The notes beneath the pieces were generated by a model that was not told where the DNA came from, ran no database searches, and saw only the letters and a program-made list of their open reading frames with translations. Below, one piece after another: positions 4,214-57,647 of a DNA stretch of 64,000 bases. This stretch comes from Planctomycetota bacterium (lineage in GTDB: Bacteria; Planctomycetota; OFTM77): NCBI GenBank assembly GCA_029260795.1, contig JAJDCO010000094.1, positions 161,193 through 225,192 on the forward strand, in the 5' to 3' direction. The first letter of the stretch is position 1. Every line of letters starts with the position of its first letter. A program made the position numbers and the translations under genes.

Positions 4214-5776
4214 TTACTTCGCATACTCGATAACGCGGGACTCTCGCATCAATGTCACTTTGATCTCGCCCGGATAGGTGAGCTCCTGCTCGATCTGGGT
4301 CGCGATCTCGCGAGCGATCTTGGTGGCGAGCCCGTCGTCGACCTTGCCGGCATCGACCACGACGCGGATCTCGCGGCCGGCCTGGACAGCGAAGGCGGAC
4401 TCCACGCCCTGATAGGAGCGAGCCAGATCCTCGAGCCGATTGAGCCGCTTGATGTACCGCTCGATGGTCTCACGTCTCGCACCTGGCCGCGCTGCCGAGA
4501 TGGCATCGGCGGTCTGAGCGATCACGGCATAGATCGATTCGAACGGCACGTCCTCGTGATGGGCGGCGATCGCGTTCACGACCTCGGGTGGCTCGCTGGA
4601 GCGGCGAGCCACCTCGGCACCGATGGCGGGATGCCCGCCCTCCATCTCGTGATCGAGAGACTTCCCGATGTCGTGGAGCAAGCCGCAGCGCTTGGCGAGC
4701 TGCGTGTCGAGGTGCAGCTCGGCGGCGATCCCCGAGGCGATGTAGGCGACCTCGATCGCATGGAAGAGCTGGTTCTGCCCATAGCTGGTTCGGTACTTGA
4801 GCCGGCCGACGAGCTTCTGGACGCGCGGGTGCACATCGGGAAGCTCGAGGTCGTAGCAGGTCTTCTTGCCGACCTCGGCAATCTCCTGCTCGAGCTCGTC
4901 GTGCACGCCCGCGACCACTTCCTCGATGCGTGCCGGTTGGATTCGCCCGTCCTGAACCAGGAGCTCGAGAGCCCGGCGCGCCACCTCCCGACGAACGTTG
5001 TCAAAGCACGAGACCACGACCACTCCGGGCGTATCGTCGACGATCACGTCGACGCCGGTCGCTTTCTCGAAGGCGCGGATGTTGCGGCCCTCGCGACCGA
5101 TGATACGGCCCTTCATCTCGTCGCTCGGAATGTCGACCGTCGAGACGACGGTGTCGGACGTGTACTGGACGGCGCAACGCTGAATCGCCACTCCGATGAT
5201 CTTCTGTGCGATGCGGTCGGTCTCCTCCTTGAGGCGAGTCCGGTGCTTCTCGATGAGGCGGTCCGCGTCGTCTCCCAGCGATTGTTCGAGCTGCTCGAGG
5301 AGCTGCTGGCGAGCCTCATCGCGAGAGAAGCCGGCGATCTCCTCCAGCCGACGCTCACGCTCGGTGACGAGCCGCTGGAGCTCTTGCTCCCGCTCGACGC
5401 TCTCGAGGCGCTTTTGCTCGAGATCCCCCGTTCGGCGCTCGAGATCCAACTCTCGGCGCTCCAGGGTGTGTGCCTTCTTCTCTTGCTGCTCTTCTCGACG
5501 ATTCAGCCGACGCTCGGCCTCGCGCTGCTCGCGCAAGCGCTCCTGCTTCTCGGACTCGAGGACCTCGCGCATCTTGATCTGCTCTTCGCGAGCGGCCAGC
5601 TCGCCTTCGCGACGGAGCGCGGCTCCCTCGTGTCGAGCCTCTTCCATCATCTGACGAACTCGCTTGCGGGCCTGCTGGTGAGCCCGTGCGAGTATGACGC
5701 GGCTCAACCCCATCCCCACGACGACCGCGGCCAGGATCGCGATCCAGAAGAGGGGCTCGCTCAAGATCTCAGACAC
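4214..5776 (-). CDS. rny: Ribonuclease Y
   Basis: 520 aa: N-terminal TM helix, long coiled-coil, KH domain (GRIIGREGRNIRAFE) and HD domain (HDIGK...HHED). GTG start at 5776. Confidence 0.93.
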   Translation of the reverse strand: MSEILSEPLFWIAILAAVVVGMGLSRVILARAHQQARKRVRQMMEEARHEGAALRREGELAAREEQIKMREVLESEKQERLREQREAERRLNRREEQQEKKAHTLERRELDLERRTGDLEQKRLESVEREQELQRLVTERERRLEEIAGFSRDEARQQLLEQLEQSLGDDADRLIEKHRTRLKEETDRIAQKIIGVAIQRCAVQYTSDTVVSTVDIPSDEMKGRIIGREGRNIRAFEKATGVDVIVDDTPGVVVVSCFDNVRREVARRALELLVQDGRIQPARIEEVVAGVHDELEQEIAEVGKKTCYDLELPDVHPRVQKLVGRLKYRTSYGQNQLFHAIEVAYIASGIAAELHLDTQLAKRCGLLHDIGKSLDHEMEGGHPAIGAEVARRSSEPPEVVNAIAAHHEDVPFESIYAVIAQTADAISAARPGARRETIERYIKRLNRLEDLARSYQGVESAFAVQAGREIRVVVDAGKVDDGLATKIAREIATQIEQELTYPGEIKVTLMRESRVIEYAK

Positions 5777-10855: not shown

Positions 10856-12243
10856 TCCGAGCTCGCCTCGAACGCGATCGCCTCGGCCGGCGTTTCCCCC
10901 AACAATGCCCGGGCCAACCCGCGCCCCTTAGCTTCCGTCTCGGACCACTCGCTCTCCGGATCGGAGTCCGCGACGATGCCGCTCCCGACATGGAAGGCGC
11001 CGTGCCCTCGCGATGCCATGACGGTCCGGATCGCGATGTTCAAGTCGAGGCGCCCATCGGCTCCGAGGTAGCCAATGGCACCCGTGTAAGCCTCCCGCGG
11101 CACCGGCTCGAGCTCGTGAATGATCTCCATCGCACGCACCTTGGGGGCCCCGGTGATCGAGCCGCCGGGGAAGGTCGCACGCAGCAGCTCCGCTAGCCCG
11201 ACCTCCGCTCGGAGGAACCCCGTGACTTGCGCCTCGAGATGATGGACGGTCGGAAAGCTCTCGAGCCGGCGAGCGGTCTCGACCCGAATGCTCCCGTACT
11301 CGCAAACGCGACCCAGGTCGTTGCGCTCCAGATCGACGATCATGGTGAGCTCGGCGGCATCTTTCGCACTGGCGAGAAGCCGCTCGCGCGCTCGAGCGTC
11401 CGCCGCCGCATCGGCCTCGCGGGGAACGGTCCCCTTGATGGGTCGGGTCTCGACTCGCCGTCCGTCCGTGGCGAGGAAGCGCTCGGGCGACGTCGACCAG
11501 ATCCAGCGTTCATCGCCCAAATCGAGACAGGCGGTGAACGGCCCTCCGTTGAAGCGCCGCAGGCGACGAAAGGGAGCCCCCCCCCGCGTGTCGAGCTCGA
11601 AGTCGAGCCGGCGAGCCAGGTTCACCTGGAAGATGTCACCGGCCGCGATGTACTCGAGCGCCCGCTCGACCGCCCGATGATAGGCGTCGGCCGTGAGGCT
11701 TTCGCGCAAGATGCCTTCGCGGATCCGCCGTCCACTCGACTCCGAAACCGCCCCCGGAAAGGCAACCGCTTCGTGCAGTGATTCGGCCGAAGCGCCTTCG
11801 AGGGCCACCTGCCAGGTGCGCTGCTCTGCATGATCAATGACGAGCGCCGAGTCGTAGTAGCCGAACCAGAGATCGGGTAGGCCGAGCCCCCCCGGGCGCG
11901 GCGTCGGCAGACACTCGACGTGGCCGCCCAGCTCGTATCCGAGGTAGCCGATCGCGCCGCCGGCAAACGGTAGGGCCGAGGAGGGATGCTGACCAAAGCT
12001 CGCGTGCCAGGCCGCCAAGGCATCGAAGGGATCGGACCGCAGGTGGCGCTCGGACCGGCCGCTCCGAATCGTGATGCCGCGTCCACGTGCTTCGATGACC
12101 GAGCGCGGACGCGTCGCGAGCACACTATATCGACCGAGCTCGGGGTATTGGCCGTCGACGCTATCGAGCCAAACGGTACCGGGAGACCGGGACAGACCGG
12201 CCCAGACCGATTCGACGTCTTGGATGTGCGGGATCTCTTCCAT
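10852..12243 (-). CDS. pabB: Aminodeoxychorismate synthase component I (chorismate-binding enzyme family; TrpE/PabB type)
   Basis: Chorismate-utilising enzyme motifs (FPGGSITGAPKVRAMEII..., GAIGY...). Start chosen at internal ATG 12243 (MEEIPHIQ...); ORF-track start 12387 adds 48 residues. PabB rather than TrpE is inferred from coupling to the class-IV aminotransferase. Confidence 0.8.
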   Translation of the reverse strand: MEEIPHIQDVESVWAGLSRSPGTVWLDSVDGQYPELGRYSVLATRPRSVIEARGRGITIRSGRSERHLRSDPFDALAAWHASFGQHPSSALPFAGGAIGYLGYELGGHVECLPTPRPGGLGLPDLWFGYYDSALVIDHAEQRTWQVALEGASAESLHEAVAFPGAVSESSGRRIREGILRESLTADAYHRAVERALEYIAAGDIFQVNLARRLDFELDTRGGAPFRRLRRFNGGPFTACLDLGDERWIWSTSPERFLATDGRRVETRPIKGTVPREADAAADARARERLLASAKDAAELTMIVDLERNDLGRVCEYGSIRVETARRLESFPTVHHLEAQVTGFLRAEVGLAELLRATFPGGSITGAPKVRAMEIIHELEPVPREAYTGAIGYLGADGRLDLNIAIRTVMASRGHGAFHVGSGIVADSDPESEWSETEAKGRGLARALLGETPAEAIAFEASSE

Positions 12244-12420
12244 GTGAAGGCTCGATTCGGTGGCGAGGATCGCTGGACGAGCGAGACAGACTAACACCGA
12301 GTGAGGAAGTGCAGCCAGGGCAGCTCGCAGCGCATTCGCTTCCCAGACATTTCGGCTCCCGGTCGAGGTGAGCCTGTGGGCACTCAACCCGCACGCTGGC
12401 GCACTCCGCGAGAGGGAGGT

Positions 12421-13347
12421 CTACTCGCGATCCTTGCGACCGCGTCCTCGAGGATGGGCTCGCTCATAGACCTCGCGATGCCGCTCCTTGGAAACGTGCG
12501 TGTAGATCTGGGTGGTGGTGAGCCGCTGATGACCGAGCAGCTCTTGCACGGCACGCAAATGGGCTCCCGCGTCCACGAGATGAGTGGCGAAGCTGTGCCG
12601 CAAGGTGTGTGGGCTGATCCGATCCGCGAGGCCGCTTCGAAGCACGTGCTTATCGAGGATCTTGCGCACGCCCCGATCGGTGAGGCGGCCTCCGCGACGA
12701 TTCACGAAGACCGCCACCGGCTCCCTCCCATCGGAGGGGAATCTCCGAACACGCTCCGGGAGGTAGGCCCGCAGACTCTGCGACGCGGAGCGACCGAGGG
12801 GGGCGAGGCGCTCCCGTTTGCCCTTACCGCGCACGCGGGCGACACCATCGATCAAGTCGAGGTCCGTCTCGTCGAGGCCGACCAGCTCGCTGACGCGCAG
12901 GCCGCCACCATAGAGAACCTCGAATAGCGCGCGATCGCGACGCCCCCAGAGCGTCTCGGCTTCGACCGACTCGATCAGGTGATCGATGTCACGAGGTACC
13001 AAGATGTGAGGCAGCTGCTTCTCGCGGCGCGGCGAGCGAATCATCGTCAGCGGATCGTGCTCGATCACGCCTTCACGGATGAGGTATCGAAAGAAGCTCC
13101 GCAGCGACGCGAGACGTCGAGCAATGGTGGCGTCGGCATACCCGTCCTCACGCAGCCCTCCGAGGTAGGCGCGGATCAGCGGGCGCTCGACGCCCTCGAG
13201 GCCCTTCACGCCTCGTCCGCCAGCGAACCGCTGGAAGCCTTGGAGATCCGTCGAATAGGCACGCACCGTGTGCTCGGAGAAGCCCCGACGATGGATCAGA
13301 TGATCGATGAAGCGGTCGACGTGCTCGTCGAGCATGAGGCTCCCCAT
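12421..13347 (-). CDS. Tyrosine site-specific recombinase, XerC/XerD-like
   Basis: 308 aa; C-terminal catalytic region HTLRHSFATHLVDAGAHLRAVQELLGHQRLTTTQIYTHV closely resembles XerC/XerD, with an N-terminal SAM-like core-binding domain. XerC and XerD cannot be distinguished by eye. Confidence 0.85.
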   Translation of the reverse strand: MGSLMLDEHVDRFIDHLIHRRGFSEHTVRAYSTDLQGFQRFAGGRGVKGLEGVERPLIRAYLGGLREDGYADATIARRLASLRSFFRYLIREGVIEHDPLTMIRSPRREKQLPHILVPRDIDHLIESVEAETLWGRRDRALFEVLYGGGLRVSELVGLDETDLDLIDGVARVRGKGKRERLAPLGRSASQSLRAYLPERVRRFPSDGREPVAVFVNRRGGRLTDRGVRKILDKHVLRSGLADRISPHTLRHSFATHLVDAGAHLRAVQELLGHQRLTTTQIYTHVSKERHREVYERAHPRGRGRKDRE

Positions 13348-13445
13348 CCAACGGGCCCTTGCGGGAGCGACCCGCCCGGATCGGTCCCAGGTTCAGCATA
13401 CGGGCACGGGCCCGAGCTGGGCAACCACCCTGGCTCAAAGGCAAA

Positions 13446-13475
13446 GCGCCTCGGGGTCGTGTGACTCCGAGGCGC
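13446..13475 (-). terminator. Hairpin downstream of tRNA-Glu (candidate terminator)
   Basis: Inverted repeat GCGCCTCGG ... CCGAGGCGC (9-bp stem, 12-nt loop) immediately 3' of the tRNA on its strand, followed by a modest U-containing tract (CUUUGCCUUUGAG). Confidence 0.3.
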
Positions 13476-27870: not shown

Positions 27871-29166
27871 ATGTTGCGTCTCAGCCTCGCCCTCTCTTGC
27901 TCACTGCTCTGCGTGTCGCCGGCCTTGGCTCAGGAAGGCAGTGATTGGCCTCAGTTCCAGGGGCCCGATCGCTCGGGCGCTTCCACCGAGACCCAGCTGG
28001 CTTGGAGCTGGGGCGAGAGAGGCCCGAAGGTGATGTGGTCGACTGAGCTCGGCCCCGGCTACGGCGGAGCGGCGGTCCTGGGTGACGAGGTCTTCGTGCT
28101 CGATCGGATCGCGGAAGAGCAAGACATCCTGCGATGCTTCGACTTGGCGACCGGCAGCGAGAAGTGGAACTTCGCCTACGCCGCTCCGGGGCGACTGGAC
28201 TACCCGGGCTCGCGCGGAGTGCCGGCCGTGACCGCGGATCACGTGTACACGATCGGCGGATTCGGCCAGGTGCTGTGCGTCGACCGCAAGACGCATGAGC
28301 CGGCTTGGAGAGTCGACCTGGCGGACCAATACGAGGCTCACATCCCGCAATGGGGCTGGGCGCAGTCGCCCTTGGTCACCGAGAAGTCGGTCATCGTGGC
28401 GCCCCTGGCCCGAGACGCGGGGCTCGCCGCCTTGAACCTCCGGACGGGCAAGGAAGTCTGGCACTCCCCGGGACTGGGCACGACGCACTCCTCTCCGGCA
28501 TTGCTACACATCCAAGGGAAGGACCAGGTCCTCTTGGTCACGACCAAGGGTCGCACCGGTCTGATCACGAGCGTGGATCCGAAGACGGGGCAGATCCTGT
28601 GGCAGCACGACCAGTACTTCTGCCGTTTCCCCATCACGGCACCCATTCGAATCGACGACGAGCGCGTGTTCGTAACGGGCGGCTACGGAGCCGGCTCACT
28701 CATGCTGAAGGTCGCACGGGGCTCGAGCAAGAGCTGGTCGGTAACCGAGCTCTATCGGCTGGAGAAGGGCTCTCAGGTTCACCTCCCGATGCTGATCGAC
28801 GATCATCTCTATCTCATGGCGAACGAGAACGGCACGGACAGTCCTCGGCGGCGCCAGAATGGCGGCCTGATGTGTGTCGATCTGAAGGGCAACGTGAAAT
28901 GGCGCACCGGCGCCGAGCCCTACTTCGGTCGCGGAAACTCGATCGTGGTCGGTGGCCAGCTGATTACGCAGGACGGCCTCAGCGGCACGCTGCGAGTCAT
29001 CGAGCCGTCGCCTTCCCAGTACCGTGCCATTGCCGAGGCGAATGTGTTCGGCACCGAGACGCAGCGCGACGAGCACATGTGGGCGCCGATGGCGCTGAGC
29101 CGAGGTCGTCTGCTGATGCGGAGCCAAGATCGGATGCTCTGCCTGGACGTCCGCGCCAGCCAGTGA
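27871..29166 (+). CDS. PQQ-like beta-propeller repeat protein (BamB/PQQ_2-like), secreted (paralog 1)
   Basis: 431 aa; signal peptide; N-terminal WPQFQGPDRSG motif shared by the six paralogs; repeated propeller blades (G..YA.D..TG...W). Confidence 0.82.
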   Translation: MLRLSLALSCSLLCVSPALAQEGSDWPQFQGPDRSGASTETQLAWSWGERGPKVMWSTELGPGYGGAAVLGDEVFVLDRIAEEQDILRCFDLATGSEKWNFAYAAPGRLDYPGSRGVPAVTADHVYTIGGFGQVLCVDRKTHEPAWRVDLADQYEAHIPQWGWAQSPLVTEKSVIVAPLARDAGLAALNLRTGKEVWHSPGLGTTHSSPALLHIQGKDQVLLVTTKGRTGLITSVDPKTGQILWQHDQYFCRFPITAPIRIDDERVFVTGGYGAGSLMLKVARGSSKSWSVTELYRLEKGSQVHLPMLIDDHLYLMANENGTDSPRRRQNGGLMCVDLKGNVKWRTGAEPYFGRGNSIVVGGQLITQDGLSGTLRVIEPSPSQYRAIAEANVFGTETQRDEHMWAPMALSRGRLLMRSQDRMLCLDVRASQ

Positions 29167-29809: not shown

Positions 29810-31084
29810 TCATTGCCAGGAGTATGCCGCCAGGCCGGTGAGCTCTCGAATGAAGATCTCGCGGCCGGACATTGCCAAATGAGCCCAGGTCTCCTGCTCC
29901 GAGACTCCGGCCTGATCCAGAACCTGGTAGGACTCGGGATTCGCCCGCAGCAAGTACAGCCGACCCGAGTCGGCCAACGCCAGGATACGGTCGCCCTGAC
30001 GTACCAGAGACCAGTAGGAGTCGCCAGTCGGAGGCGAGGTCCAACACGTCTCGCCGGTCGGAAGGTGAATGCAGGTGAATCGATTCGCACGCGTGAACAG
30101 ATAGGCATGCTCGTCGATGATCACCGGCGAGGTCATGTAGCCTTGGGTGGAGTTCTGCCAACCGGCCTCGATGTTCCAGCCGGCCTCGAGTCGACTCACG
30201 TTCAGCAGACGAGCCCTCGCGCCGTATGCGGCCGTGAAGATCCCTTCGTCAAAGACGATCGGCGTCAGGATGTTCATGCCGCGAAACGATGGCGTTTGCA
30301 TTCGCCACAGCACCGCGCCCTCCGACTCGCTCACGCCCTGGAGGTGAGTCCGCGACTGCACAACGAGCTGAGGGACACCACCCAGCGTGACACGGACTGG
30401 AGAGGCGAAGGCGCTGCCGTTCATGCCGCCCCCATCTCCCAGCGAGCGCCAGATCTCCTTGCCGGTCTCCTTGTTCAGCTTGACGAAGGCTCCGCCCGCT
30501 TGCACGTAGACCGCGTCGCCCACGACCAGCGGAGAGCAAACGAAGCCAAAGGCCGGGAGGTCGGTGCCTTGATCTTCGGAAAAGTCGACTCGCCAAACCA
30601 CTTCACCCGTCTTCGCGTCGAGGCACACGAGCAGGTCGCACATGCCGGCCACGTAGAGGCGTTGCCCGTCGAACGCAGGCGTCGAGCGCACCCAGGATCC
30701 GTTGCGAGCCGCGAAGAAGGGCACCTTCATGGCCCCCTCCCACTCAATCTTCCACAGCTCGTGCCCCGTTCGACGGTCCAGGGCGCGGACGACCTCGTGC
30801 GTCTCGTCTCGCGTCTCGACCGAGAAGACTCGGTCCGCGGTCACGATCGGCCCCGCGTAGCTCTCCCCGAGCTCGACTCGCCATTGCAGCTTCAGTCGCG
30901 CGTCTCCAAAGCCCTCCGGCCAGGTCGGCCCCGTGAACGTCCCGTCTCGCACCGGCCCTCGCCACTGGTTCCAATCCACGGGAGCGTCGGTCGTCAAAGT
31001 CTCGGCCGTCTTTTGGACGTCGTCATCCGAGAGACCGAATCCGAGTAGCGACAGGAGTCCAGAAGTCAGTGCCAGCGTGATCAT
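29810..31084 (-). CDS. PQQ-like beta-propeller repeat protein (paralog 2)
   Basis: Start set at ATG 31084 (MITLALTSGLLSLLGFG signal); WNQWRGPVRDG motif; propeller repeats. Confidence 0.8.
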   Translation of the reverse strand: MITLALTSGLLSLLGFGLSDDDVQKTAETLTTDAPVDWNQWRGPVRDGTFTGPTWPEGFGDARLKLQWRVELGESYAGPIVTADRVFSVETRDETHEVVRALDRRTGHELWKIEWEGAMKVPFFAARNGSWVRSTPAFDGQRLYVAGMCDLLVCLDAKTGEVVWRVDFSEDQGTDLPAFGFVCSPLVVGDAVYVQAGGAFVKLNKETGKEIWRSLGDGGGMNGSAFASPVRVTLGGVPQLVVQSRTHLQGVSESEGAVLWRMQTPSFRGMNILTPIVFDEGIFTAAYGARARLLNVSRLEAGWNIEAGWQNSTQGYMTSPVIIDEHAYLFTRANRFTCIHLPTGETCWTSPPTGDSYWSLVRQGDRILALADSGRLYLLRANPESYQVLDQAGVSEQETWAHLAMSGREIFIRELTGLAAYSWQ

Positions 31085-31189: not shown

Positions 31190-31909
31190 TCAGTTCGAGC
31201 GCGCCCCGATCGGAATCAGGTAGAGCGGGAGCTCGCGAGGAGACCCCCCCAGCGCCGCACGCACGAGATCGGAATCGATCCCTCCGACGGGCACGGCCCC
31301 CAGATCGAGCGCAGTCGCTTGCAGCAACAGGTTCTGGGCCGCGTGCCCGGCCTCGAGCTGCACGTAACGGGGCGCGATCTCGGCGTCGTACTCCGCGGCC
31401 ATGCGGTCGACGACGCCACACAGCACGAAGACCGCGGGCGCTTGGGCGAGGACCTTCTGATCGTAGGCGGCCGCAGGCAGCGCCGAACGCAGGTCTCCTC
31501 GGCGGTACAAGATCAGGCGATGGTCCTGCGGCTCGTAATGATAAAGGCCTTCCGGCAGCACGATCCACAGCTCGAGTGGGTAAGCGGGTCCAGCCGACGG
31601 CGCCGTGCGATGCCCATCGGCGTCCGTCGTCCCCTGTGCAGCCCAGGCGAGCTGCGAGATCTCTTCACGGCTCAGAGAGCGACCTCCGAACTCACGAATC
31701 GAGCGCCGTTGAGCCAAGACCTCTTCGAGCGACCGCTCCCCTTTCAATCGGGGTGCGGGAAGCTCGATCGTCTCCAGAGCCTCGCCTCGCTCGATCGGTC
31801 CCGAGCCGGTCTCGTCGCCACAGCTCGCCAGCCCGGCGAGCCCAATCAGGAGCACGAGACGACACAGGCCCGTCACTCGGATCACTGAGACTCCCCGGCT
31901 TGGAGGCAC
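31190..31909 (-). CDS. SagB-type dehydrogenase / nitroreductase-family protein (lipoprotein-like signal)
   Basis: 239 aa; nitroreductase-like N-terminal motif RRSIREF...LSREEISQLAWAAQG and SagB-like PSAGPAYP; N-terminal LAGLASCG lipobox-like signal. Confidence 0.78.
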   Translation of the reverse strand: MPPSRGVSVIRVTGLCRLVLLIGLAGLASCGDETGSGPIERGEALETIELPAPRLKGERSLEEVLAQRRSIREFGGRSLSREEISQLAWAAQGTTDADGHRTAPSAGPAYPLELWIVLPEGLYHYEPQDHRLILYRRGDLRSALPAAAYDQKVLAQAPAVFVLCGVVDRMAAEYDAEIAPRYVQLEAGHAAQNLLLQATALDLGAVPVGGIDSDLVRAALGGSPRELPLYLIPIGARSN

Positions 31910-33147
31910 AGCAAGGCTCCGCGCGTCCGGACGAAGAGACGTCCCTGGGACCAGGCGGGAGTCGCCTGTGTGGGCTCACCGAGCTCGAGTCGCTGCAGCA
32001 GGCCAAACTCGGCTGCCGCACGAAGCACGAGCAGCTCGCCCGACGTGGTTCCGATGACGAAACGCTCGCCGATGCGAATCGGGGAGCCGAAGGTCTCGCC
32101 CCCCTCGACGCGCTCGCGCCAGTGGACCTCACCGGTCGAGCGGTCCAAGCAAGACGCCACTCCCGAGTCGCTCCAAAGAAACAGAGCGTCTCCGAGTCCG
32201 ATCGGGCTCGGAACGTAGGGGAGCGCCTGCTGGGCGCGAAAGAGGATCTCGGGCGCTTCCTTCGCCGGGTCGAGTGGGAGACGAACCGTGACGCTCTCCT
32301 TGCCCCCTCCACCGGAGCCTGCAGCCTGGATGAGTGTCCTCCCGACCAAACCAGATGATCCCACGCAGCGTTGCTCGAACAGGTCCTCCAAGGACCACAA
32401 GACCCGCCCGGTGCTCGGCTCGATCCCCGTCAAGCCGTGAGCCGTGCTCGCCGTGACGATCTGGATCGGTCCCCCATCGGGCTCGAAGGCCACGGGCGTC
32501 GCGTACGAGGCGCGAACGCTTCGACGGGGAATCCGCCATCGATCACGACCGGTCGCGGGGTCGAGACCGACGAGAAAGCCGTCTTCGCCCTCGTGCTCCT
32601 TCGCGACGATGAGGACGCCTTGAACGAGCAAGGGCGAAGCGCCACTACCGTGCTGGGCCTGGAAGGCACCCAGGTCTCGACGCCAAGCGGGCTCGCCGTC
32701 CAGCTTCAGAGCCAGCAGCTCGAGCTTCTCACCACTCGTCCAAGAGACATAGAGACGCTCACCGTCCACGGCCGGTGTCGAGGCCGCGAAGCTGTTGAGC
32801 CGGTGTTGCGAGTGGGACTGAAACTCGTACGAGCGCGACCACTGGACGGTGCCCGTTCGCACGTCGAGACAAGTGACGCGGCGTTTTCCGGTGTCGGGCA
32901 TCTCCTCGGTGAGGAAGAGCCGGTCGCCGCGGACCACGGGCGACGAGTGCCCTTGTCCTCCGGTCTTCACGCGCCACACGATCTCGAGCGGTCCCGCGTC
33001 GGCGGGCCATCCGGCATCGACCTGTCCGCGGGCGCCAGGCCCTCGGAAACCGGGCCAGTCCTGACTCGGCCAGCCGAGGCTTCCAAAGAGCAACGAGAAC
33101 ACCAGCAGGCTCATGAGCCACCGGACGAGCCGAACGCCGTGGCTCAT
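31882..33147 (-). CDS. PQQ-like beta-propeller repeat protein (paralog 3)
   Basis: Start set at ATG 33147 (MSHGVRLVRWLMSLLVFSLLFGSLG signal); WPGFRGPGARG motif. Confidence 0.8.
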   Translation of the reverse strand: MSHGVRLVRWLMSLLVFSLLFGSLGWPSQDWPGFRGPGARGQVDAGWPADAGPLEIVWRVKTGGQGHSSPVVRGDRLFLTEEMPDTGKRRVTCLDVRTGTVQWSRSYEFQSHSQHRLNSFAASTPAVDGERLYVSWTSGEKLELLALKLDGEPAWRRDLGAFQAQHGSGASPLLVQGVLIVAKEHEGEDGFLVGLDPATGRDRWRIPRRSVRASYATPVAFEPDGGPIQIVTASTAHGLTGIEPSTGRVLWSLEDLFEQRCVGSSGLVGRTLIQAAGSGGGGKESVTVRLPLDPAKEAPEILFRAQQALPYVPSPIGLGDALFLWSDSGVASCLDRSTGEVHWRERVEGGETFGSPIRIGERFVIGTTSGELLVLRAAAEFGLLQRLELGEPTQATPAWSQGRLFVRTRGALLCLQAGESQ

Positions 33148-34578: not shown

Positions 34579-36405
34579 TTATCCGTCTCTTCGTTCACCC
34601 ACGGCAATGAGATGATGCTGAGTCCGAAAATACAAAACACCTTCCGAGAGGGCGGGCGACGCCATCGTCGGATCCTTCAATGAGTTGACCTCGAGAATCT
34701 CGAACTCCGGTCCCAGCTTCACGACGTAAACCTCCCCGTCCTCACTCGCCTGGTACAGCTTCCCGTCTCCAGAAACGCCCGAAGCCGTGAAGCCGTAGCC
34801 GCCCATCTGGGTGTTGGCGAGTCGCTCGCGATAGATCTCGTCGCCCGTTTTGGCGTCGAAGCACGACAGGACACCGAGATCGTTGCAGCAGTAGAGAAGG
34901 TCGCTCGCGACCAACGGCGTCTGCATGTAGTTGCCGCGCCGCATGTGGAACCAGGCGAGGTCCTTACTGGTCGGCAGCGTCGAGAGCTTACCGCTGGCAT
35001 CGAGCGGAATCGCATAGATCGGCGCGTGGCGTCCATGCGCATTCGTGATGTAGGCGAGGTCATTCGCGACGATCGGTGTCGGGACCGGGATGTCCCCGCC
35101 CCCTTCCAACCACCAGAGCGCCTCTCCCGTCTCGAGGTCATATCCGCCGATGTGCTTCCAGCCATTGCAGATCACCTGCGACCGCTGCTTCCCGACGTGC
35201 ACGGTCGGCGTTCCCCAGGTGGGCACTTCCTCACGCTCGGTGCGCCAGAGGTCTTCGCCCGTCTCGAGCGACAAGGCCCCCACCCACGACTGCGCTTGAA
35301 TGTCGACCTGAAGGATGATCTTGTCCTCGTGGATGACCGGTGAGCTCGCGAAGCCCCACTGAGCCTGCGGCATCGAGAAGTAGCCCGAGTCCAGGAGACC
35401 GAAGTCCTCGCGCTTCCACAGCAGCTTGCCATCGCGGTCGTAGCAGTAGAGCCCTTCCGAGCCGAAGAACGCGACCACACGATCGCCGTTCGTCGCGACC
35501 GACGAGGCGGCGTGGCTGCCCTTGGGATGCCGCTTCACCTGGGGCATCCCGCCCCACGCCGTCTGCGACCACAGCAGATTGCCCGTGTGCTTGTCGTAGC
35601 AGAGCACACGAAACGTCTGAGCGCCTTCGTCTTCCACCGGCGCGATCGAGCCGTACAACCCGACCTTGAGCTCGGCCTCACCTTCGTTCGCACCGACCGC
35701 CGTCGTCAGGTAGAGACGTTCGCCCCAGATCACGGGGCTCGAGTGCGCCAAGCCCGGAACGTCGATCTTGAAGACGACGTTCTCGCCGCTTTCGACGTTC
35801 CACTTCGTCGGCAGCGGATACCCGTCGGAGTGGCCTCGAGCCTGCTCGCCGCGGAAGGCCGGCCAGTTGCCGTCGCCCTTATCTGTGGGAGCCGGACCGT
35901 CACTCGCCTCGGCCCGCTTCTCGAGGCGCCCATACATCTGGCCACCATGGTCGCCCGCATCCCAGATGCCCGCGTATTGTCCGCGGAAGAACACGACGCG
36001 CGCGGAGAACGTGCCCATGCCCGGCACCGGCACGTCCGTGAGCGTGATGACGGGCGTATCTCCTGCCCACTTCACCTTGACGGGTGCCGGCCAGACCGAG
36101 TCCGTCTTGCCGTACTGGATCCGGGCCGTGATCAGCCAGAGGTCCCCGATCATCTTGCGCGCACCCTGAATCGAGTAGCGCTCCTCTTGCGGGGCCGTCT
36201 TTTGACCCGTGACGGTGAAATGTCCGACCAGGTCGACTCCGGTCAGCATCTGGGCGAACTCGTCCTCGAGACGCTCACGGTCGTTCGGCTTGGCCGTCTC
36301 GGGGGGCGGAGCCGACTCGTCGGTTTCGGTTTGAGCGATCAACGGCAACGTGCCGACACCCAAGACCAGCAGAACGACAGCCCGGGCGAGCCAGTGGCGG
36401 ATCAT
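34579..36405 (-). CDS. PQQ-like beta-propeller repeat protein with ~170 aa N-terminal extension (paralog 4)
   Basis: 608 aa; signal peptide; extra N-terminal domain, then WPAFRGEQARG and propeller repeats. Confidence 0.8.
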   Translation of the reverse strand: MIRHWLARAVVLLVLGVGTLPLIAQTETDESAPPPETAKPNDRERLEDEFAQMLTGVDLVGHFTVTGQKTAPQEERYSIQGARKMIGDLWLITARIQYGKTDSVWPAPVKVKWAGDTPVITLTDVPVPGMGTFSARVVFFRGQYAGIWDAGDHGGQMYGRLEKRAEASDGPAPTDKGDGNWPAFRGEQARGHSDGYPLPTKWNVESGENVVFKIDVPGLAHSSPVIWGERLYLTTAVGANEGEAELKVGLYGSIAPVEDEGAQTFRVLCYDKHTGNLLWSQTAWGGMPQVKRHPKGSHAASSVATNGDRVVAFFGSEGLYCYDRDGKLLWKREDFGLLDSGYFSMPQAQWGFASSPVIHEDKIILQVDIQAQSWVGALSLETGEDLWRTEREEVPTWGTPTVHVGKQRSQVICNGWKHIGGYDLETGEALWWLEGGGDIPVPTPIVANDLAYITNAHGRHAPIYAIPLDASGKLSTLPTSKDLAWFHMRRGNYMQTPLVASDLLYCCNDLGVLSCFDAKTGDEIYRERLANTQMGGYGFTASGVSGDGKLYQASEDGEVYVVKLGPEFEILEVNSLKDPTMASPALSEGVLYFRTQHHLIAVGERRDG

Positions 36406-40597: not shown

Positions 40598-41152
40598 TCA
40601 GCGTTGTTCGGTCTCGGCCGGTCTCTCGATGGACGCCGTCGACTTCTTGGGCGATGGCCCCGGCTTGTAGAGCATCACCAGCATCCCTCCGACTGCGGCC
40701 AACAGGATGCCGAGGAAGAACTGGGGCTTGATGCTCGAGAAGCCAGCGGCCGGGGGATGCAGCGCAAGCGAGACGACCGCGTTCACGACCGGCGCCCCGG
40801 CGAAGATGATCGACATCACGACGGCGGGCTTGCCGTTGGCACCGAAGGCGAGCAGAACGCCGAAGGCACCGATCGCACCGGCGACGCCCGCGACCAGGGA
40901 CCAGGTGATGCCCTTGCCACTCATCGACCAGTCGCTGCCCTTGAGAAGGAGCAGGAGAGCGGGCGCCAAGACGGCGGCGAGGAAGTAGGCGATGCCGACC
41001 CAGAGGAATGCCTTGTAGCGGGCATTGGGATCATTCACCCCCATGGTCGTCTGTCCGGTGTGGAGCAGAATGCCGTAGAGGCCCCAACAGGCGACAGTCA
41101 GCATCGCGTAGGCGAGCCAGAGGTTGCTTTCTTGTCCAGAGCTCCCGGGCAT
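40598..41152 (-). CDS. Hypothetical small integral membrane protein (4-5 TM helices)
   Basis: 184 aa, strongly hydrophobic; 16 nt upstream of the ABC ATPase start; no family recognised. Confidence 0.55.
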   Translation of the reverse strand: MPGSSGQESNLWLAYAMLTVACWGLYGILLHTGQTTMGVNDPNARYKAFLWVGIAYFLAAVLAPALLLLLKGSDWSMSGKGITWSLVAGVAGAIGAFGVLLAFGANGKPAVVMSIIFAGAPVVNAVVSLALHPPAAGFSSIKPQFFLGILLAAVGGMLVMLYKPGPSPKKSTASIERPAETEQR

Positions 41153-44434: not shown

Positions 44435-45630
44435 CGACCTCGTTTCTTCTCACCGGACTTCTGATCCGACTCACCGAACACGTACAGCAGTCCGTCATTG
44501 GCGCCGATCAGGATGCGACCGCCCGCCACGGCGGGCGAGGAGAAGATCGACTGGCCGATGTCGTACGACCACGTCTCTTCGCCCGTTGCGGCATTCAAGA
44601 CATACAGGCGGCCATCCGCCGAGCCGAAGACCACGCGGTCGCCACAGAGCACCGGCGAGGCGTCGATCTTGCGTCGCGTCTTGAACGCCCACACCTCTTC
44701 GCCATCGGCGAAGCGAACGCAGTGCAGCTTCTTGTCACGACCCCCGAAGTAGACGAGGTCCTCGCCGATCGCGGGTGACGAGAAGAAGGCGTTCCGGCCG
44801 TCGCCGAACGACCAGACCTCCTCGCCTTTGTTCAGATCGAGGCGCACGAACGCGTTGCCGTAGTGGCCGAAGAACGCTTGGTCGCGATCGACTCCGACCG
44901 AGCCCGCGATGTAGCTCTCGGCTCCCATGTCGAGCTGCGACTGGGCTTGCCCCTCGGCGAGGGACACCACGTGCAGGCGAGCGTCACAGCCGCCAAACAC
45001 GATCTGATCGTTCCAAACCGCCGGCGTTCCGTTGACGTAGTTCTCCGTCTCGTAGCGCCACACCGGCTCGCCCGTCTTCGCATCCAGACAGTAGAGAGCG
45101 GAGTCGTAGCTCCCGAACACGACGCGACGGCCCTCAGCCGACTCGAAGAGCGTCGCTCCCCCTTGAACCTTGTCTCCGGTCTCGAACTTCCAGCGCAGAT
45201 CCCCCGTCTTCTTGTCGAGGGCGTAGAAGAAGCCGTCCGTGGAGCCGACGTAGACCGTGTCCCCGCTTACGGTCGGGGGCGCCTCGATCATGTCCTCCGT
45301 CGCGAATCGCCAGAGGCCGCGGCCGGTCTCGAAGTCGATCGCGTGGAGGTGGTAGTCGTCGGAGCCCACAAACACTCGCCCGCCCTCGATCACTGGAGAA
45401 GAGGCGATGGCGGCTTCCGTTGCGTACGTCCAGAGCAGTCGAGGCTCCGCTGGGAGTCGCCCCGAGGCGACTCCGGTCTGACTCGGATTCCCGCGGAAGC
45501 TGGGCCACTCGCTCGAGGTCGGGGAGGCAACCGGCTTCGCCGTCGGCTCTTGAGCGCAGATGGCTCCGGACACCAGCATGCCGACCATCAGGAGCGCCAA
45601 CGCCAGAATGCGATCGCCTCGTCGATTCAT
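44431..45630 (-). CDS. PQQ-like beta-propeller repeat protein (paralog 5)
   Basis: Start set at ATG 45630 (MNRRGDRILALALLMVGMLVSGAICA signal); WPSFRGNPSQTG motif; 4-nt overlap with the HemN-like gene. Confidence 0.8.
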   Translation of the reverse strand: MNRRGDRILALALLMVGMLVSGAICAQEPTAKPVASPTSSEWPSFRGNPSQTGVASGRLPAEPRLLWTYATEAAIASSPVIEGGRVFVGSDDYHLHAIDFETGRGLWRFATEDMIEAPPTVSGDTVYVGSTDGFFYALDKKTGDLRWKFETGDKVQGGATLFESAEGRRVVFGSYDSALYCLDAKTGEPVWRYETENYVNGTPAVWNDQIVFGGCDARLHVVSLAEGQAQSQLDMGAESYIAGSVGVDRDQAFFGHYGNAFVRLDLNKGEEVWSFGDGRNAFFSSPAIGEDLVYFGGRDKKLHCVRFADGEEVWAFKTRRKIDASPVLCGDRVVFGSADGRLYVLNAATGEETWSYDIGQSIFSSPAVAGGRILIGANDGLLYVFGESDQKSGEKKRGR

Positions 45631-51762: not shown

Positions 51763-53157
51763 CTACCGATCCACCGCATCACCGACCGCGCGACGACACA
51801 GCTCTTCAGCACGCTTCACCAGCTCGTCGTCCCTCAGCGTCGCGTTCGAGAACACCATCTCGACCGCGATGCTGCCGCGCGCTCCGACCAAGCTCAGAGT
51901 CTCGATCCGATCGGGCCCGGCTCCCTCCAGCCCCTTGGCTGCCAGCACTGCCTGGAAGCCCGGGCGGCGGATCGACTCGTAGCGTGGATCGACGATCCGG
52001 ATGGAGCCGGTCTTCATCGCCTCGTCTTTCAGCTTGCCCAGCTGCTCGAAAGCAGCGACGTAGCCGAGCGCACCGGCCGCGTCCTTGAACTCGTACAGCC
52101 CCACGATGACCTGCTGAGCCGGATTCTCGGCCGGGGCCATCACCAGCAATCGGTTGTGCAGGAGCGATCCGACGACCTGCTCGACGGACTCCTTGGGCAG
52201 GAGGGCGAGCGCGGCCGCGATCTGCGGCTTCACTGCCACGGCTTGCTGCGCATTCCAGCCCTCGAAGGTCTTCGAGAACTCGGTGAGAGCTCCTTCGAAG
52301 TCGTGTTTCAGCTCCGGACGCTTGGAGGGATCGAGATACCACTCGGGATGGAGGATCACGTCGAGATCTGCCGGCGGCTCGCGAAACAGTCGCCCAACCA
52401 GCTCCGCCTGCTCGGCGTCTCCTTGCCCCTCCAGGAGGGTCGCCACGAAGCGCTCGCCGTCGTAGTACGCGACGCTCATCGACGCCGCCGCGACTCGGCT
52501 GAGCAACTTCGTCGCCTCGTCACCCTTTTCGGGAACCCAACCGATGGCCGACGTGAACTGATCGAAGGCCTCTTTCCAGCCCTGCTGCTCGCACACCTGG
52601 CGAGCTCGATGCTGGGCGTATCCTTCGATGATCGCCTGATAGGCCTGAAAGCGGCCGGCCGTCGACAGGGTGTCGAGCACCTTGCCGAACTCGTGCCGCT
52701 GGTCGTCGAGCGCGTGCATCGCCTCGTGGACCAACACGGCTTGCAGGCACTGACGTGAGTTGAGCTCCGGCTTCTCCATGAGCTTCGAGAGGTTCTCGAA
52801 GTTGGTCGCACAGATCAGGATCGTCTGCGAGTCGAATGCATACTTCCCGAGCAGAGCCATCGAGAGCGCGCCGGCACCGAGCCGAGCTTGCGTTTCGGGA
52901 TCTTCGATCCCCTGTGCCCGGAGCTGTCGCTCCAGCTCGGGCCGGAGCACCTTCGCGATGTCCGCCGGCTCGGCGAGGCGCACCTTCGTCTCCGGCATCT
53001 CGAGCTCGAGCGCTGCCTCGATGGCCCGCTCGGCCTCCGACCAGCATTCGCGCAGCAACGCGGCGTCGATCTCGAAGGCATCGGAAGCCTCGAGATCCTG
53101 GCTGCAGGAGAGGGGCGACAGCAACAGGACCGCGATCAGGACAGGAAGGGCACGCAT
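51763..53157 (-). CDS. Secreted HEXXH-motif protein, putative zinc metallopeptidase (paralog-like to 18828-20234)
   Basis: Start set at ATG 53157 (MRALPVLIAVLLLSPLSCS signal); VHEAMHAL followed ~25 aa later by EGYAQH, the same HEXXH...EGxA arrangement as the 18828-20234 protein. Confidence 0.65.
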   Translation of the reverse strand: MRALPVLIAVLLLSPLSCSQDLEASDAFEIDAALLRECWSEAERAIEAALELEMPETKVRLAEPADIAKVLRPELERQLRAQGIEDPETQARLGAGALSMALLGKYAFDSQTILICATNFENLSKLMEKPELNSRQCLQAVLVHEAMHALDDQRHEFGKVLDTLSTAGRFQAYQAIIEGYAQHRARQVCEQQGWKEAFDQFTSAIGWVPEKGDEATKLLSRVAAASMSVAYYDGERFVATLLEGQGDAEQAELVGRLFREPPADLDVILHPEWYLDPSKRPELKHDFEGALTEFSKTFEGWNAQQAVAVKPQIAAALALLPKESVEQVVGSLLHNRLLVMAPAENPAQQVIVGLYEFKDAAGALGYVAAFEQLGKLKDEAMKTGSIRIVDPRYESIRRPGFQAVLAAKGLEGAGPDRIETLSLVGARGSIAVEMVFSNATLRDDELVKRAEELCRRAVGDAVDR

Positions 53158-53365
53158 CGGGATTCTCCTGGAATTCGTCGCAGCGGCGTTGGGCGAGCCG
53201 CGATCATCGCAAAGGAACGCGGGTCCGAGAAGCGCCGTTCGGCCTCGAGGTGACGCCACGACGTTCCCACCACGGCTCTCGACGGAGCCCCTTGCCCCGA
53301 CTGCGGTGCCCGAGGACACTAGGGGCCGGTCCGACGCGCTCGCCCACCGATTCGGGAGGCTGTCC

Positions 53366-54640
53366 GTGCTGTTTTCGCAGGTGATGCTCTTTTCCGTCCT
53401 CCTAGGGACCTCGACCATCCGCGACGAAGAAGCGGCCGCTTGGCCGGACTTTCGTGGACCGCGCGGCGACGGGCACGCCATCGCCACTGCTCGCCCGCCC
53501 GTCGAATGGAGCGAAGAGCGGTACGTGACCTGGAAGACACCCGTTCACGGGCTCGGCTGGTCGTCGCCGGTCGTCGTCGACGGTCAGGTGTGGATGACCA
53601 CCGGCACCGAAGATGGGCACCGACTCTCGGTGGTTGCCGTCGATCTCGCGTCGGGCGCGGTCGTGCACGATCGCGTGCTGTTCGAGGTCGATGAGCCCCA
53701 GTTCCGGAATGCGCTCAATAGCCATGCCTCCCCCTCACCCGTCGCGATGCCTGGCCGCGTGTTCGTCCACTTCGGCGCCTACGGAACGGCGGCCTTGGAC
53801 TCCCGGACGGGCGAGACGGTTTGGCAACGACGCGATCTCCCCTGCCAGCACCTGATGGGACCCGGTTCCTCTCCCGTGCTGGTCGACGGTCGCCTCGTGC
53901 TCACTTTCGACGGGGCCGATCGTCAAGTGGTCGTGGGACTGGACCCGGCGACTGGCGAGACGCTCTGGGAGACGCCGCGCTCGACCGACTTCACGAACAT
54001 CATCCCGGACCAACGCAAGGCTTACGGAACGCCCTTCGTCGCCGAGGTCGACGGCCAGCGGCAGCTGGTGAGCGTGGGCGCGCAGGCGGCGTTCGGACTC
54101 GATCCCCGCACCGGCGTCGAGCTGTGGCAGGTGCGAATCCCCGGCTACTCCATGTCCTCGCGCCCCTTCGCGGGCCGCGGCCTGACCTTCATCAACACCG
54201 GCTTCGATCGACCGCAGCTCTGGGCAATTCGCCTGGGTGGTCTGGGCGATGTGACCGAATCCCACGTAGCATGGAAGGAGACGCGCAGCCTCCCGACCAT
54301 CGCCTCGAAGGTGCTCGTCGACGACCGAATCTACCTGGTCAGTGACGGAGGCGTGCTGGGCTGTTTGAAGGCGGACACCGGCGAGACGATCTGGCGCGAG
54401 CGCATCGGGGGCCGCTTCTGCGCCTCGCCGATCGTGGCCGGCGGACACGTCTACTTCTTCGACCGCGAGGGCATGGCCACGGTGATCGTACCCGAGGACG
54501 AGTATCGCCTCGTCGCCCAGAACAGCCTCGAGGCGGGCTGCATGGCATCGCCCGCCGTCATCGGAAACGCCCTCATCGTCCGCACGACCTCCCACCTCTA
54601 TCGGATCGAGGGCCCGAAGCGGGCCGACTCGAAACGCTAG
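53366..54640 (+). CDS. PQQ-like beta-propeller repeat protein (paralog 6)
   Basis: Start tentatively GTG 53366, preceded by GGGAGG 6 nt upstream (ATG 53384 is an alternative); WPDFRGPRGDG motif; propeller repeats. Confidence 0.78.
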   Translation: MLFSQVMLFSVLLGTSTIRDEEAAAWPDFRGPRGDGHAIATARPPVEWSEERYVTWKTPVHGLGWSSPVVVDGQVWMTTGTEDGHRLSVVAVDLASGAVVHDRVLFEVDEPQFRNALNSHASPSPVAMPGRVFVHFGAYGTAALDSRTGETVWQRRDLPCQHLMGPGSSPVLVDGRLVLTFDGADRQVVVGLDPATGETLWETPRSTDFTNIIPDQRKAYGTPFVAEVDGQRQLVSVGAQAAFGLDPRTGVELWQVRIPGYSMSSRPFAGRGLTFINTGFDRPQLWAIRLGGLGDVTESHVAWKETRSLPTIASKVLVDDRIYLVSDGGVLGCLKADTGETIWRERIGGRFCASPIVAGGHVYFFDREGMATVIVPEDEYRLVAQNSLEAGCMASPAVIGNALIVRTTSHLYRIEGPKRADSKR

Positions 54641-54663
54641 CCTCCGTCGGGTTCACACTTGCC

Positions 54664-55611
54664 ATGACATCGCCGATCGATCCCCGCGAAGATCCCCGCG
54701 CCTTCTTCCAACGTCCCGAGCTCATGGCCCTGCCCTGGGTCGAGTCGCCTTTCTTCGAGCAGCTCCTGGTGAACAGCGGGCTGCCGGAGTCCCAGCAGGA
54801 CCAAGCCCGGCGATTCTCGCGCGATGGTCTCCTGACCCTCGAGCTGGGCGATGAGCAATTCCAGGACACGGCTGGTCGCATCATCGCGCGCCTGGCCGAT
54901 CGTTATCCCGAAGGGAACCGGCGAGTGGCTGAGGCGTGGACGTTCCATGAAGACGTGCGCGGCCTCGCGGGCCACCCGATTGTCATCGACACGCTTCGCA
55001 TGCTGTACGGTCGCGAGCCACTTCCGTTCCAGACGCTGAACTTCGACGCCGGCACCCAGCAGCTCGGGCACAGCGATGTCGTTCATTTCTACGCGCGACC
55101 CCGGCGTTTCATGTGCGGCGTCTGGATCGCGCTCGAGGACATCGACGGCGACAACGGGCCACTCTTCTACTACCCGGGCAGCCACCGCCTACCCGAGTAC
55201 GACTTCAGCGACCTGGGACTGAAGCCCGACATCAGCGAGTAAGCGACCTACGAGTCGTTCGTGCGCGCGCTCGTGCACGTCGAGGGCTTCGAGCGGCAGG
55301 AGCTCCACCTCCGCCGCGGGCAGGCCGTCATCTGGGCCGCCAACCTCGTGCATGGCGGCACCCCGGTGAAGGACTCGGCGCGCACACGGCACAGCCAAGT
55401 CACCCACGACTACTTCGACGGCGGCGCCTGGTACATGCCGCTCGGCTCCGACCCCTTCGGGGGCCAGGTCTGCTTCCGAGAGGTCATCGACATTCGAACG
55501 GGCCGCATGGTCCCCCCCCACCTGGCCGGACAGGTGCTCGACCTCGACGCTCAGCCGACCGTCTGGCGCTACCCGCGTCCCCTGCCCGACTGGGTCGTCG
55601 TCGATCGATGA
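54664..55611 (+). pseudogene. Phytanoyl-CoA dioxygenase (PhyH) family Fe(II)/2-oxoglutarate oxygenase interrupted by one in-frame TAA (55240-55242)
   Basis: ORFs 54664-55242 and 55261-55611 are in the same frame, separated only by TAA. Upstream part carries the HxD region (GHSDVVHFYARP...YYPGSHRL); downstream part carries the distal-His region (GQAVIWAANLVHGGTP...RTRHSQVTHYF). Together they make one ~315 aa PhyH-like protein. Confidence 0.65.
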
Positions 55612-55632
55612 GCTTCGAGGGGACATTCGACG

Positions 55633-56727
55633 TCAGGCGAAGTACTTCCCAAACCGGTTCTCGATGAAGGCTCGGAACGGGATCTCTTCCTGGCGCACGA
55701 AGCCGCGGGCCGGAATCTTGCCTTCGCGGAGGAGGTCCACCAGGGCACAGACCCCGGCGGCGGTCGTGACCTGGATGCCGCTCCAATTCTCGCCGTCGAT
55801 CTCTTGGTGGTAGATCGTGTTGGCGTAGGTGCGCTCGGTGAGTCGGTCTTGGTAGACGCCGACGGCGCTGACGACGATGACGATCTGGTCGTGCAGCGTG
55901 AGCGGGAGGCAACGCTCAAAGATGTCGCGGAGCACATCCGGCTGATCGCGCATCTGCAAGTCTTGCACCAGGAACTTGATCAGATCACAGTGGCCGGGAT
56001 ATCGGATCGACTTGTAGTTGACGTTGCGGACGCGCCCCTGGAGCGAGTGTGCGAAGCTGCCGAGCCCACCCGAGGTGTTGAAGGCCTCGTACTCGACACC
56101 GTCGATCGTCAGATGCTCGAGGTTCTCGAGCGGCTGCACTTGCCGGAACTCACCATCGAGGAGCACTTCACACGGGTTGAGGTACTCATTGATGAGACCT
56201 TCGGTGCTCCAGGTCAGGTTGTACTTCAGACGGTTGGAGGGGTATCGCGGCAAAGCACCGACGCGCATCTGGATGTCCGTGACCTCGGTCATCGGTGCGA
56301 TCAGATCGTTGGCGATGATCGTGATAAAGCCTGGCGCCAGGCCACACTGCGGGACGAAGGCCGTCTCGGCGCCGTCGGCGAGCGCTTCGACCTTGTTGGT
56401 GACGGCGACATCCTCGGTCAGGTCGAAGTAGTGCAGGCCGAGCTCCCGGGCGCGCTCCGCGATCAGCGGGTTGCAGTGGAAGGGCGCGCAAGAGATCACG
56501 ATGTCGGCGCCCTCGAGGATGCCGTCCAGGCTCGTCGCGTCCGAAAAGTCCACGGTTCGAGGGTCGACGCCGGTCAAGCGGCTGGCGATCCGTTGGGCGG
56601 CACCTTCCGCCGCATCACCGACCCTCAGGGAGTAGTCTCCCGAGGTGGCCAAGAAGTGGGCCACCATCCGGCCGATCTTTCCGGCGCCCAGCAGTACCAC
56701 GTTTTTCAAGTCAATCGCTCCGCTCAT
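55633..56727 (-). CDS. Saccharopine dehydrogenase-family NAD(P)-binding oxidoreductase
   Basis: Start set at ATG 56727 (MSGAIDLKNVVLLGAGKIGRMVAHFLA, Rossmann GxGxxG); remainder consistent with the Sacchrp_dh fold. Substrate unknown. Confidence 0.78.
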   Translation of the reverse strand: MSGAIDLKNVVLLGAGKIGRMVAHFLATSGDYSLRVGDAAEGAAQRIASRLTGVDPRTVDFSDATSLDGILEGADIVISCAPFHCNPLIAERARELGLHYFDLTEDVAVTNKVEALADGAETAFVPQCGLAPGFITIIANDLIAPMTEVTDIQMRVGALPRYPSNRLKYNLTWSTEGLINEYLNPCEVLLDGEFRQVQPLENLEHLTIDGVEYEAFNTSGGLGSFAHSLQGRVRNVNYKSIRYPGHCDLIKFLVQDLQMRDQPDVLRDIFERCLPLTLHDQIVIVVSAVGVYQDRLTERTYANTIYHQEIDGENWSGIQVTTAAGVCALVDLLREGKIPARGFVRQEEIPFRAFIENRFGKYFA

Positions 56728-56885
56728 CACGCTCTTTGGCCCGGCCGGGCCTCGAATTCGAAGACCGCACACGGTAGACGGGTTGGATCGAGAACGCAAC
56801 GATCGCCAAGATGTGGAGCGGCCGACTGGGTCGGCGAAGACTTCGTGAGGCGACCTCGCCTCGCCGGCACTCTGAAAGGACTCCC

Positions 56886-57647
56886 ATGCCCCGACTCGGC
56901 ACGCTCCACCGCTGGTTCGCATTCGTGGCGGGAATCCAGCTGCTGCTCTGGACCGTCAGTGGCCTGATCTTCACGCTCGACCCGATCGCGGTCGTCCGAG
57001 GCGAAGACACGCTGCCGGTGCCGGTGCCGGTTCCTCTCGATCCCGAGCGCGTCCGCGTGACGGTACCGGAAGCGTGCCAGGCGGCTCGGGCGAGCGGTCG
57101 ACTCGAGGAGCCGATCCGGGGCGTCTCGTTGGGCCTCGATCGCGATCGCTTGACCCTGGCGGTGCTGGGAGCCCAGGACCGCACGGTGCTCGTCGATGCG
57201 GAGACCGGAGTCGTGCTCGATCCCTTGACGCCCGTCGAGGCGGGCGAGCTCGTCCAACGCCGCTATCGCGCCGAGACGCCGCCGGCCGTCGTGGACAGCC
57301 AGCTCATCGAGGACGAGGCGCCGTTCGAGTTTCGCGGTGGGCGGCTGCCCGTCTTGAGAGTGGACCTCGACGACGGGCGCGACACGCACGTCTACGTGGA
57401 CCCCGAGACGGGCCGCATCCTCAAGCGCCGGAATGCCACCTGGAGACGCTTCGATTTCTTCTGGATGCTGCACATCATGGACTACTCGGAGCGCGAGGAC
57501 TTCTCGACGCCGTGGCTGAAGATCTTCGCCGGTTTGGGCGTGCTCACGGCGCTGTCGGGCCTCGGAATGGTCGTGATCCACGTTCGACGGCGCTGGCGGC
57601 GGTGGCGCTATCGAAACGCCTCCCCCATCTCCATCGTCACGGACTGA
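56886..57647 (+). CDS. Membrane protein with two TM helices flanking a periplasmic domain (PepSY-associated TM-like)
   Basis: Start set at ATG 56886 (MPRLGTLHRWFAFVAGIQLLLWTVSGLIF); C-terminal TM (LKIFAGLGVLTALSGLGMVVIHV); family assignment tentative. Confidence 0.5.
   Translation: MPRLGTLHRWFAFVAGIQLLLWTVSGLIFTLDPIAVVRGEDTLPVPVPVPLDPERVRVTVPEACQAARASGRLEEPIRGVSLGLDRDRLTLAVLGAQDRTVLVDAETGVVLDPLTPVEAGELVQRRYRAETPPAVVDSQLIEDEAPFEFRGGRLPVLRVDLDDGRDTHVYVDPETGRILKRRNATWRRFDFFWMLHIMDYSEREDFSTPWLKIFAGLGVLTALSGLGMVVIHVRRRWRRWRYRNASPISIVTD

Follow-up and report, generated by a model that had tools for sequence, protein, structure and literature searches.

A recent TAC-to-TAA nonsense mutation has probably inactivated a PhyH-type oxygenase gene in a Planctomycetota genome

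A reading frame for a PhyH-type oxygenase in a Planctomycetota metagenome-assembled genome is interrupted by a single in-frame TAA, and the question this locus raises is whether that codon marks a gene that has been lost, a base that the organism does not carry, or a stop in spite of which an enzyme is still produced. The locus was analysed within a 64,000-nucleotide stretch of DNA, hereafter the window (64 kb), and all positions are those of the window unless another locus is named. Three options had been left side by side in the initial annotation, namely a recent pseudogene, a sequencing error and stop-codon readthrough. The first of these is now favoured, given that a tyrosine codon TAC has been lost, that the TAA is found in a second assembly, and that TAA terminates normally in this genome. 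The interruption is probably a real and recent TAC-to-TAA nonsense mutation that inactivates the gene, which would make the locus either a null allele or a pseudogene of recent origin.

The frame occupies positions 54664-55611 of the forward strand, with an ATG at 54664 and a natural TGA at 55609-55611, and comprises 315 codons with one internal stop only, the TAA at 55240-55242. The residues on the two sides of this stop read ...KPDISE, stop, ATYESFVRALVHVEGF.... Two open reading frames had been listed for the region, at 54664-55242 (192 aa) and at 55261-55611 (116 aa, with a GTG start), and both lie in this same frame. No frameshift, no indel and no stop other than the TAA at 55240-55242 was found in the frame 54664-55611. 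Coordinates and translation thus agree with two statements of the initial annotation: that the two open reading frames are one frame split by one TAA, and that this frame holds no frameshifts or further stops. The G+C content is about 65% throughout the 64 kb. In the 80 codons before the TAA, GC3 is 0.86, and in the 80 codons after it GC3 is 0.95, so the stretch 3' of the stop is still coding-like. The parts of the gene and the neighbouring features are presented in Table 1.

Table 1. Features of the interrupted PhyH-type gene, its neighbours, and the PQQ-like beta-propeller genes of the window.
Feature	Position	Strand	Basis or remark
PhyH-type gene, codons 1-192 (N fragment)	54664..55239	+	holds metal ligands His136 and Asp138
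Premature TAA in place of a conserved Tyr codon	55240..55242	+	sequence, homologue column, orthologue codon, Logan contig (L003)
PhyH-type gene, codons 194-315 and natural TGA (C fragment)	55243..55611	+	holds distal ligand His230, and Arg242
PQQ-like beta-propeller gene, 424 aa	53366..54640	+	called as a gene on the identical Logan contig, with a Pfam PQQ_2 match; tblastn
Saccharopine-dehydrogenase-like gene, 364 aa	55633..56727	-	convergent; 78% identical to L001 13622-14713
PQQ-like propeller paralogue	27931..29046	+	tblastn
PQQ-like propeller paralogue	29831..31000	-	tblastn
PQQ-like propeller paralogue	31900..33108	-	tblastn
PQQ-like propeller paralogue	34600..35883	-	tblastn
PQQ-like propeller paralogue	44461..45516	-	tblastn

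When searched separately, the N fragment matches the Pfam family PhyH (PF05721) with 51.1 bits, and the C fragment matches it weakly, with 13.6 bits, which is under the 22-bit cut-off. The joined halves yield a single unbroken PF05721 match over residues 126-242 with 64.5 bits (cut-off 22). NCBIfam gives no specific family, the best match reaching 15.9 bits where 226 are required. With a profile built from 21 family members, the closest solved relative is the human phytanoyl-CoA hydroxylase PHYH (2a1x). His136 (55069-55071) and Asp138 (55075-55077), both 5' of the TAA, and His230 (55351-55353), 3' of it, align with the HQD and LIHG (LxHG) motifs of 2a1x, and Arg242 (55387-55389), which is also 3' of the TAA and corresponds to the basic residue that binds the C5 carboxylate of 2-oxoglutarate, expected some 10-12 residues beyond the distal His, aligns with the Arg of the FRKA motif. 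A search of 5.8 billion proteins gave 3604 relatives, the best 119 of which were aligned, and these four residues are invariant in all 119. The coding sequence for the HxD...H triad is divided by the TAA. The continuous match on the joined sequence upholds the family assignment that the initial annotation had made, and the placement of the residues, together with the 2a1x alignment, agrees with its claim that the stop has the HxD on its upstream side and the distal His and Arg on its downstream side.

Each of the 119 aligned homologues, the best of the 3604 relatives, is one protein of about 300-550 aa that aligns across the break, which shows that the two halves do not adjoin by chance. None of the 119 is split. 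P0002 and P0121, the sole short matches, are the two fragments of the window gene itself. It had been considered beforehand that the orthologues might be naturally two genes, and the best 119 homologues, all single proteins, speak against this. In the column of the stop, Tyr is found in 115 of the 119 sequences, and W, Q, R and S occur once each. The closest relative, P0001, is a protein of 312 aa that is 72% identical, encoded in the Planctomycetota metagenome-assembled genome GCA_040219065.1 on contig JAVJTD010000180. Its locus (L001) is syntenic with that of the window, with a PQQ-like beta-propeller gene immediately upstream and genes for a saccharopine dehydrogenase and AhpC downstream. 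The P0001 codon at the position of the stop is TAC, and tyrosine codons within the window gene are TAC nine times and TAT once. Since the syntenic orthologue has TAC, one C-to-A change at 55242, turning the TAC of Tyr193 into TAA, most likely accounts for the stop.

No intact, near-identical allele was found in the protein collection, the GTDB representatives or the JGI metagenomes that were searched. The search of 5.8 billion proteins returned no relative between 72% and 100% identity, none of the GTDB species representatives is closer than 73% identity, and the JGI metagenomes, scanned for the exact pattern with N allowed at the third position of the codon, gave 0 matches.

The fold was assessed on a structure predicted for the orthologue P0001 rather than for the window protein. 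The AlphaFold model of P0001 (pLDDT 96.4, pTM 0.93) presents a double-stranded beta-helix fold, and Foldseek relates it to SnoN, MysH, EctD, PHYHD1 and PHYH, with E values of 1e-11 to 1e-13 and a probability of 1.0. Tyr192 of the model, which is residue 193 in the window, lies in the first turn of a helix formed by residues 189-205. This helix is preceded by a loop (169-188) whose length varies within the family, and the strands that bear His229 and Arg241 come after it.

These observations suggest the following course of events. A C-to-A transversion at 55242 would have changed TAC, the codon of the conserved Tyr193, to TAA within an intact gene of 315 codons, and translation would stop after residue 192. 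The resulting product would keep the HxD motif and would be without helix 189-205 and the later beta-strands bearing His230 and Arg242. Judging from the orthologue model, these 192 residues would be without about half of the jelly-roll and without two of the four cofactor-binding residues. Lacking the metal and 2-oxoglutarate site, the truncated product would be inactive, as is to be expected from the known chemistry of the family. The gene would then be a very young pseudogene that has become fixed, or else the predominant allele of the sampled population would be a null one. No uninterrupted polypeptide with the whole active site is encoded, the TAA parting the HxD from His230 and Arg242, and the locus, as read from its sequence, is a remnant of a PhyH-family gene and not a functional member.

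The members of the PhyH subfamily to which the gene belongs share conserved motifs of their own, PFQTLNF and SQVTHY(Y/F)F, and a C-terminal WRYPRPLP tail outside the Pfam domain. The subfamily is found in Planctomycetota, in filamentous cyanobacteria (Okeania, Trichodesmium, Rivularia), in Bacteroidota (Dyadobacter, Spirosoma, Mucilaginibacter), and also in Candidatus Peribacteria and Chlamydiia. No characterised member or close homologue of the subfamily was found.

The age of the lesion was assessed from the state of the remaining gene. Among the 119 homologues, 59 columns are at least 90% conserved (the column of the stop being excluded), and the window sequence departs from them at two, one in each half, with E60 in place of D in the N half and D249 in place of Y in the C half. 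Intact relatives with at least as many departures amount to 62% for the N half and 36% for the C half. There are 86 single-base changes that could make a further stop in the gene, and none of them has happened. In terms of stops, frameshifts and conserved columns, neither half presents any relaxed constraint or decay beyond the TAA. Given this lack of excess damage at conserved positions in both halves, the lesion appears young. Gene sequence and alignment indicate that it is recent, as the initial annotation had proposed, the window copy carrying no extra damage at conserved columns in comparison with intact relatives. Values of dN/dS against the orthologue, 0.19 in the N part of the gene as compared with 0.57 in its C part, are based on few sites, reflect mostly divergence that predates the lesion, and were given no weight.

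Asp249 (GAC, 55408-55410) deserves a separate remark. Its column contains Y in 114, F in three and C in two of the 119 homologues and never D, so that the residue is unique among the 120 sequences; it adjoins the invariant His248 and lies in the fragment 3' of the stop. It was considered as a second damaging change and rejected as not significant, given that a unique residue in at least one conserved column is seen in 31% of intact relatives.

That the gene is otherwise undecayed is equally compatible with a recent mutation, with an error and with a gene still in use. If the TAA had arisen in sequencing or in consensus building, or came from a minority allele made consensus, the organism would carry TAC and an intact gene. 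A lone third-position substitution without other damage is the form that an error would take, and the source is a metagenome-assembled genome. The NCBI and Logan assemblies probably go back to one read set, which would make them independent as assemblers and not as data. Nevertheless, we consider this explanation unlikely. SRR15505515_140901, a Logan contig of 8012 bp that was assembled independently from the public run SRR15505515, encodes the C fragment letter for letter; over 6351 bp it shows 100% identity to the window, with the TAA and the split into 192 and 116 aa both present, so two assemblers arrived at the identical base. The contig that carries the window measures 227,939 bp, which suggests adequate coverage. 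A six-frame scan of the 64 kb was also performed for isolated stops with 80 stop-free, coding-like codons on each side, and its hits are the TAA at 55240-55242 and six TGA sites. Two of the TGA sites were inspected, at 43100 (radical SAM/glycosyltransferase) and at 40598 (membrane protein/ABC ATPase), and are ordinary gene boundaries; the other four were judged by their flanks only, as ordinary gene boundaries or shadow frames. No gene in the 64 kb other than the PhyH gene is broken by such an isolated stop, which indicates that the assembly is not generally error-prone and that the lesion is isolated. Moreover, wrong substitutions in the consensus of short-read assemblies occur far less often than real pseudogenes, which account for roughly 1-5% of bacterial genes. 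The TAA is thus likely to be present in the cells, and not just in the reads.

The remaining alternatives accept the TAA as real and concern how it is read. That the two open reading frames are naturally separate genes, or that TAA is a sense codon under an altered code, is next to impossible. Apart from the bare fact that two open reading frames are called, nothing speaks for either: separate genes were ruled out by homologues that are all single chains, and the C fragment alone falls under the Pfam threshold. As for the code, the RNase Y gene (4214-5776, minus strand) ends with ...KVTLMRESRVIEYAK (RVIEYAK) followed by TAA, and since ...EYAK is presumably the usual C-terminus of RNase Y, TAA ends this gene at its normal place. 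A second long open reading frame, for a beta-propeller of 608 aa, also ends on TAA, and no other in-frame TAA occurs within coding-like sequence in the 64-kb window; an altered code was rejected on these grounds. In this genome, TAA acts as a true stop. Functional bypass, in which an active enzyme is still made through low-level near-cognate readthrough of the UAA, or through termination and restart at the GTG at 55261, is very unlikely. Less credence still is given to its specific outcomes, a wild-type enzyme produced by tRNA-Tyr misreading the UAA, or a two-piece oxygenase whose fragments, made by a restart, assemble non-covalently at residue 193. Use of the gene despite the stop would, if true, explain the lack of decay in both halves, which are undamaged and coding-like; the GTG begins 19 bases past the TAA, and the break falls at the end of the length-variable loop and the start of the helix, a kind of boundary at which split proteins are sometimes tolerated. 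However, the in-frame stop is conserved in none of the 119 relatives, and the orthologue has TAC. No suppressor tRNA was found in the window, where the sole tRNA is a tRNA-Glu, and the RNA fold of positions 55225-55330 (106 nt) has a z of -1.29, with 16 of 200 shuffles folding as well. A restart at 55261 would lose residues 193-199 (YATYESF), among them Tyr196 and Glu197, which are nearly invariant, and no Shine-Dalgarno-like sequence precedes this GTG. No promoter-like or terminator-like site was found inside the gene when positions 53000-57000 were examined. UAA is the least leaky of the bacterial stops, and we know of no natural bacterial recoding of it. A recent nonsense mutation is the explanation retained.

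As a side observation on stop usage, 56 GC3-filtered open reading frames of the window end in TAA in two cases, in TGA in 39 and in TAG in 15, in a crude list that includes shadow-frame open reading frames.

The PQQ-like beta-propeller gene upstream ends 23 bases before the PhyH start and is probably co-transcribed with it; as the TAA lies downstream of it, the propeller gene is unaffected. Its counterpart on JAVJTD010000180 is 62% identical and sits before the intact PhyH orthologue, the adjacency of the two genes spanning positions 53366-55611 in the window and 8719-10939 in L001. This adjacency is absent around PhyH homologues in 79 other genomes (loci L005-L083). A conserved propeller-PhyH operon was considered and rejected, the arrangement being kept only in the nearest relative, JAVJTD010000180; hence, there is no family-wide operon to suggest a substrate. 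The 64-kb window contains no PhyH paralogue that could compensate for the loss.

On the other side of the gene, the saccharopine-dehydrogenase-like gene serves as the synteny anchor to the orthologous locus. The two loci present differences in gene content. In L001, a 750-aa sigma-70-domain gene (11203-13455) lies between PhyH and the saccharopine dehydrogenase, and the gap at 55612-55632 of the window is without it; the window, unlike L001, has a PepSY_TM gene (56811-57647) between the saccharopine-dehydrogenase gene and AhpC. A tblastn search with the gene upstream of PhyH gives six paralogous PQQ-like beta-propeller genes in the 64 kb, with 21-30% identity; the gene at 53366-54640 is counted among them.

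In comparison with known systems, the locus is most similar to the internal-stop pseudogenes of the NCBI PGAP class, with which it shares a one-base change from sense to stop, intact homologues, and a rest of the frame that is kept. Both PhyH fragments are without an NCBI protein accession, which would fit an annotation as a pseudogene. Relative to a typical internal-stop pseudogene, the window copy is unusually young and has no second lesion, yet nothing essential differs. With the PhyH-family oxygenases (PHYH 2a1x, PHYHD1, EctD, SnoN/SnoK, MysH), it shares the HxD...H triad and the Arg, and, by way of the orthologue model, the fold. However, identity to the solved members is just 14-22%, the subfamily has its own motifs, and the window copy is truncated by the stop. 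Bacterial recoding, as in UGA-selenocysteine, UAG-pyrrolysine and lineage-wide reassignment of UGA or UAG, resembles the present case in having an in-frame stop in a conserved enzyme, and only in that: here the codon is UAA, the stop is unconserved, the RNA downstream folds no better than shuffles, and UAA terminates in the same window. The window gene is most probably an ordinary nonsense pseudogene and not an instance of new decoding.

A 2-oxoglutarate oxygenase that is naturally split or dependent on readthrough would be of moderate interest if bypass were shown, but none of the present observations suggests it. Finding one nonsense pseudogene in a metagenome-assembled genome is nothing unusual, and the locus is fit for annotation as a pseudogene with an internal stop. 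The case is a clean one, in that the ancestral codon can be given with confidence as the TAC of Tyr, and it draws attention to a widespread, uncharacterised PhyH subfamily that is apparently losable in this lineage.
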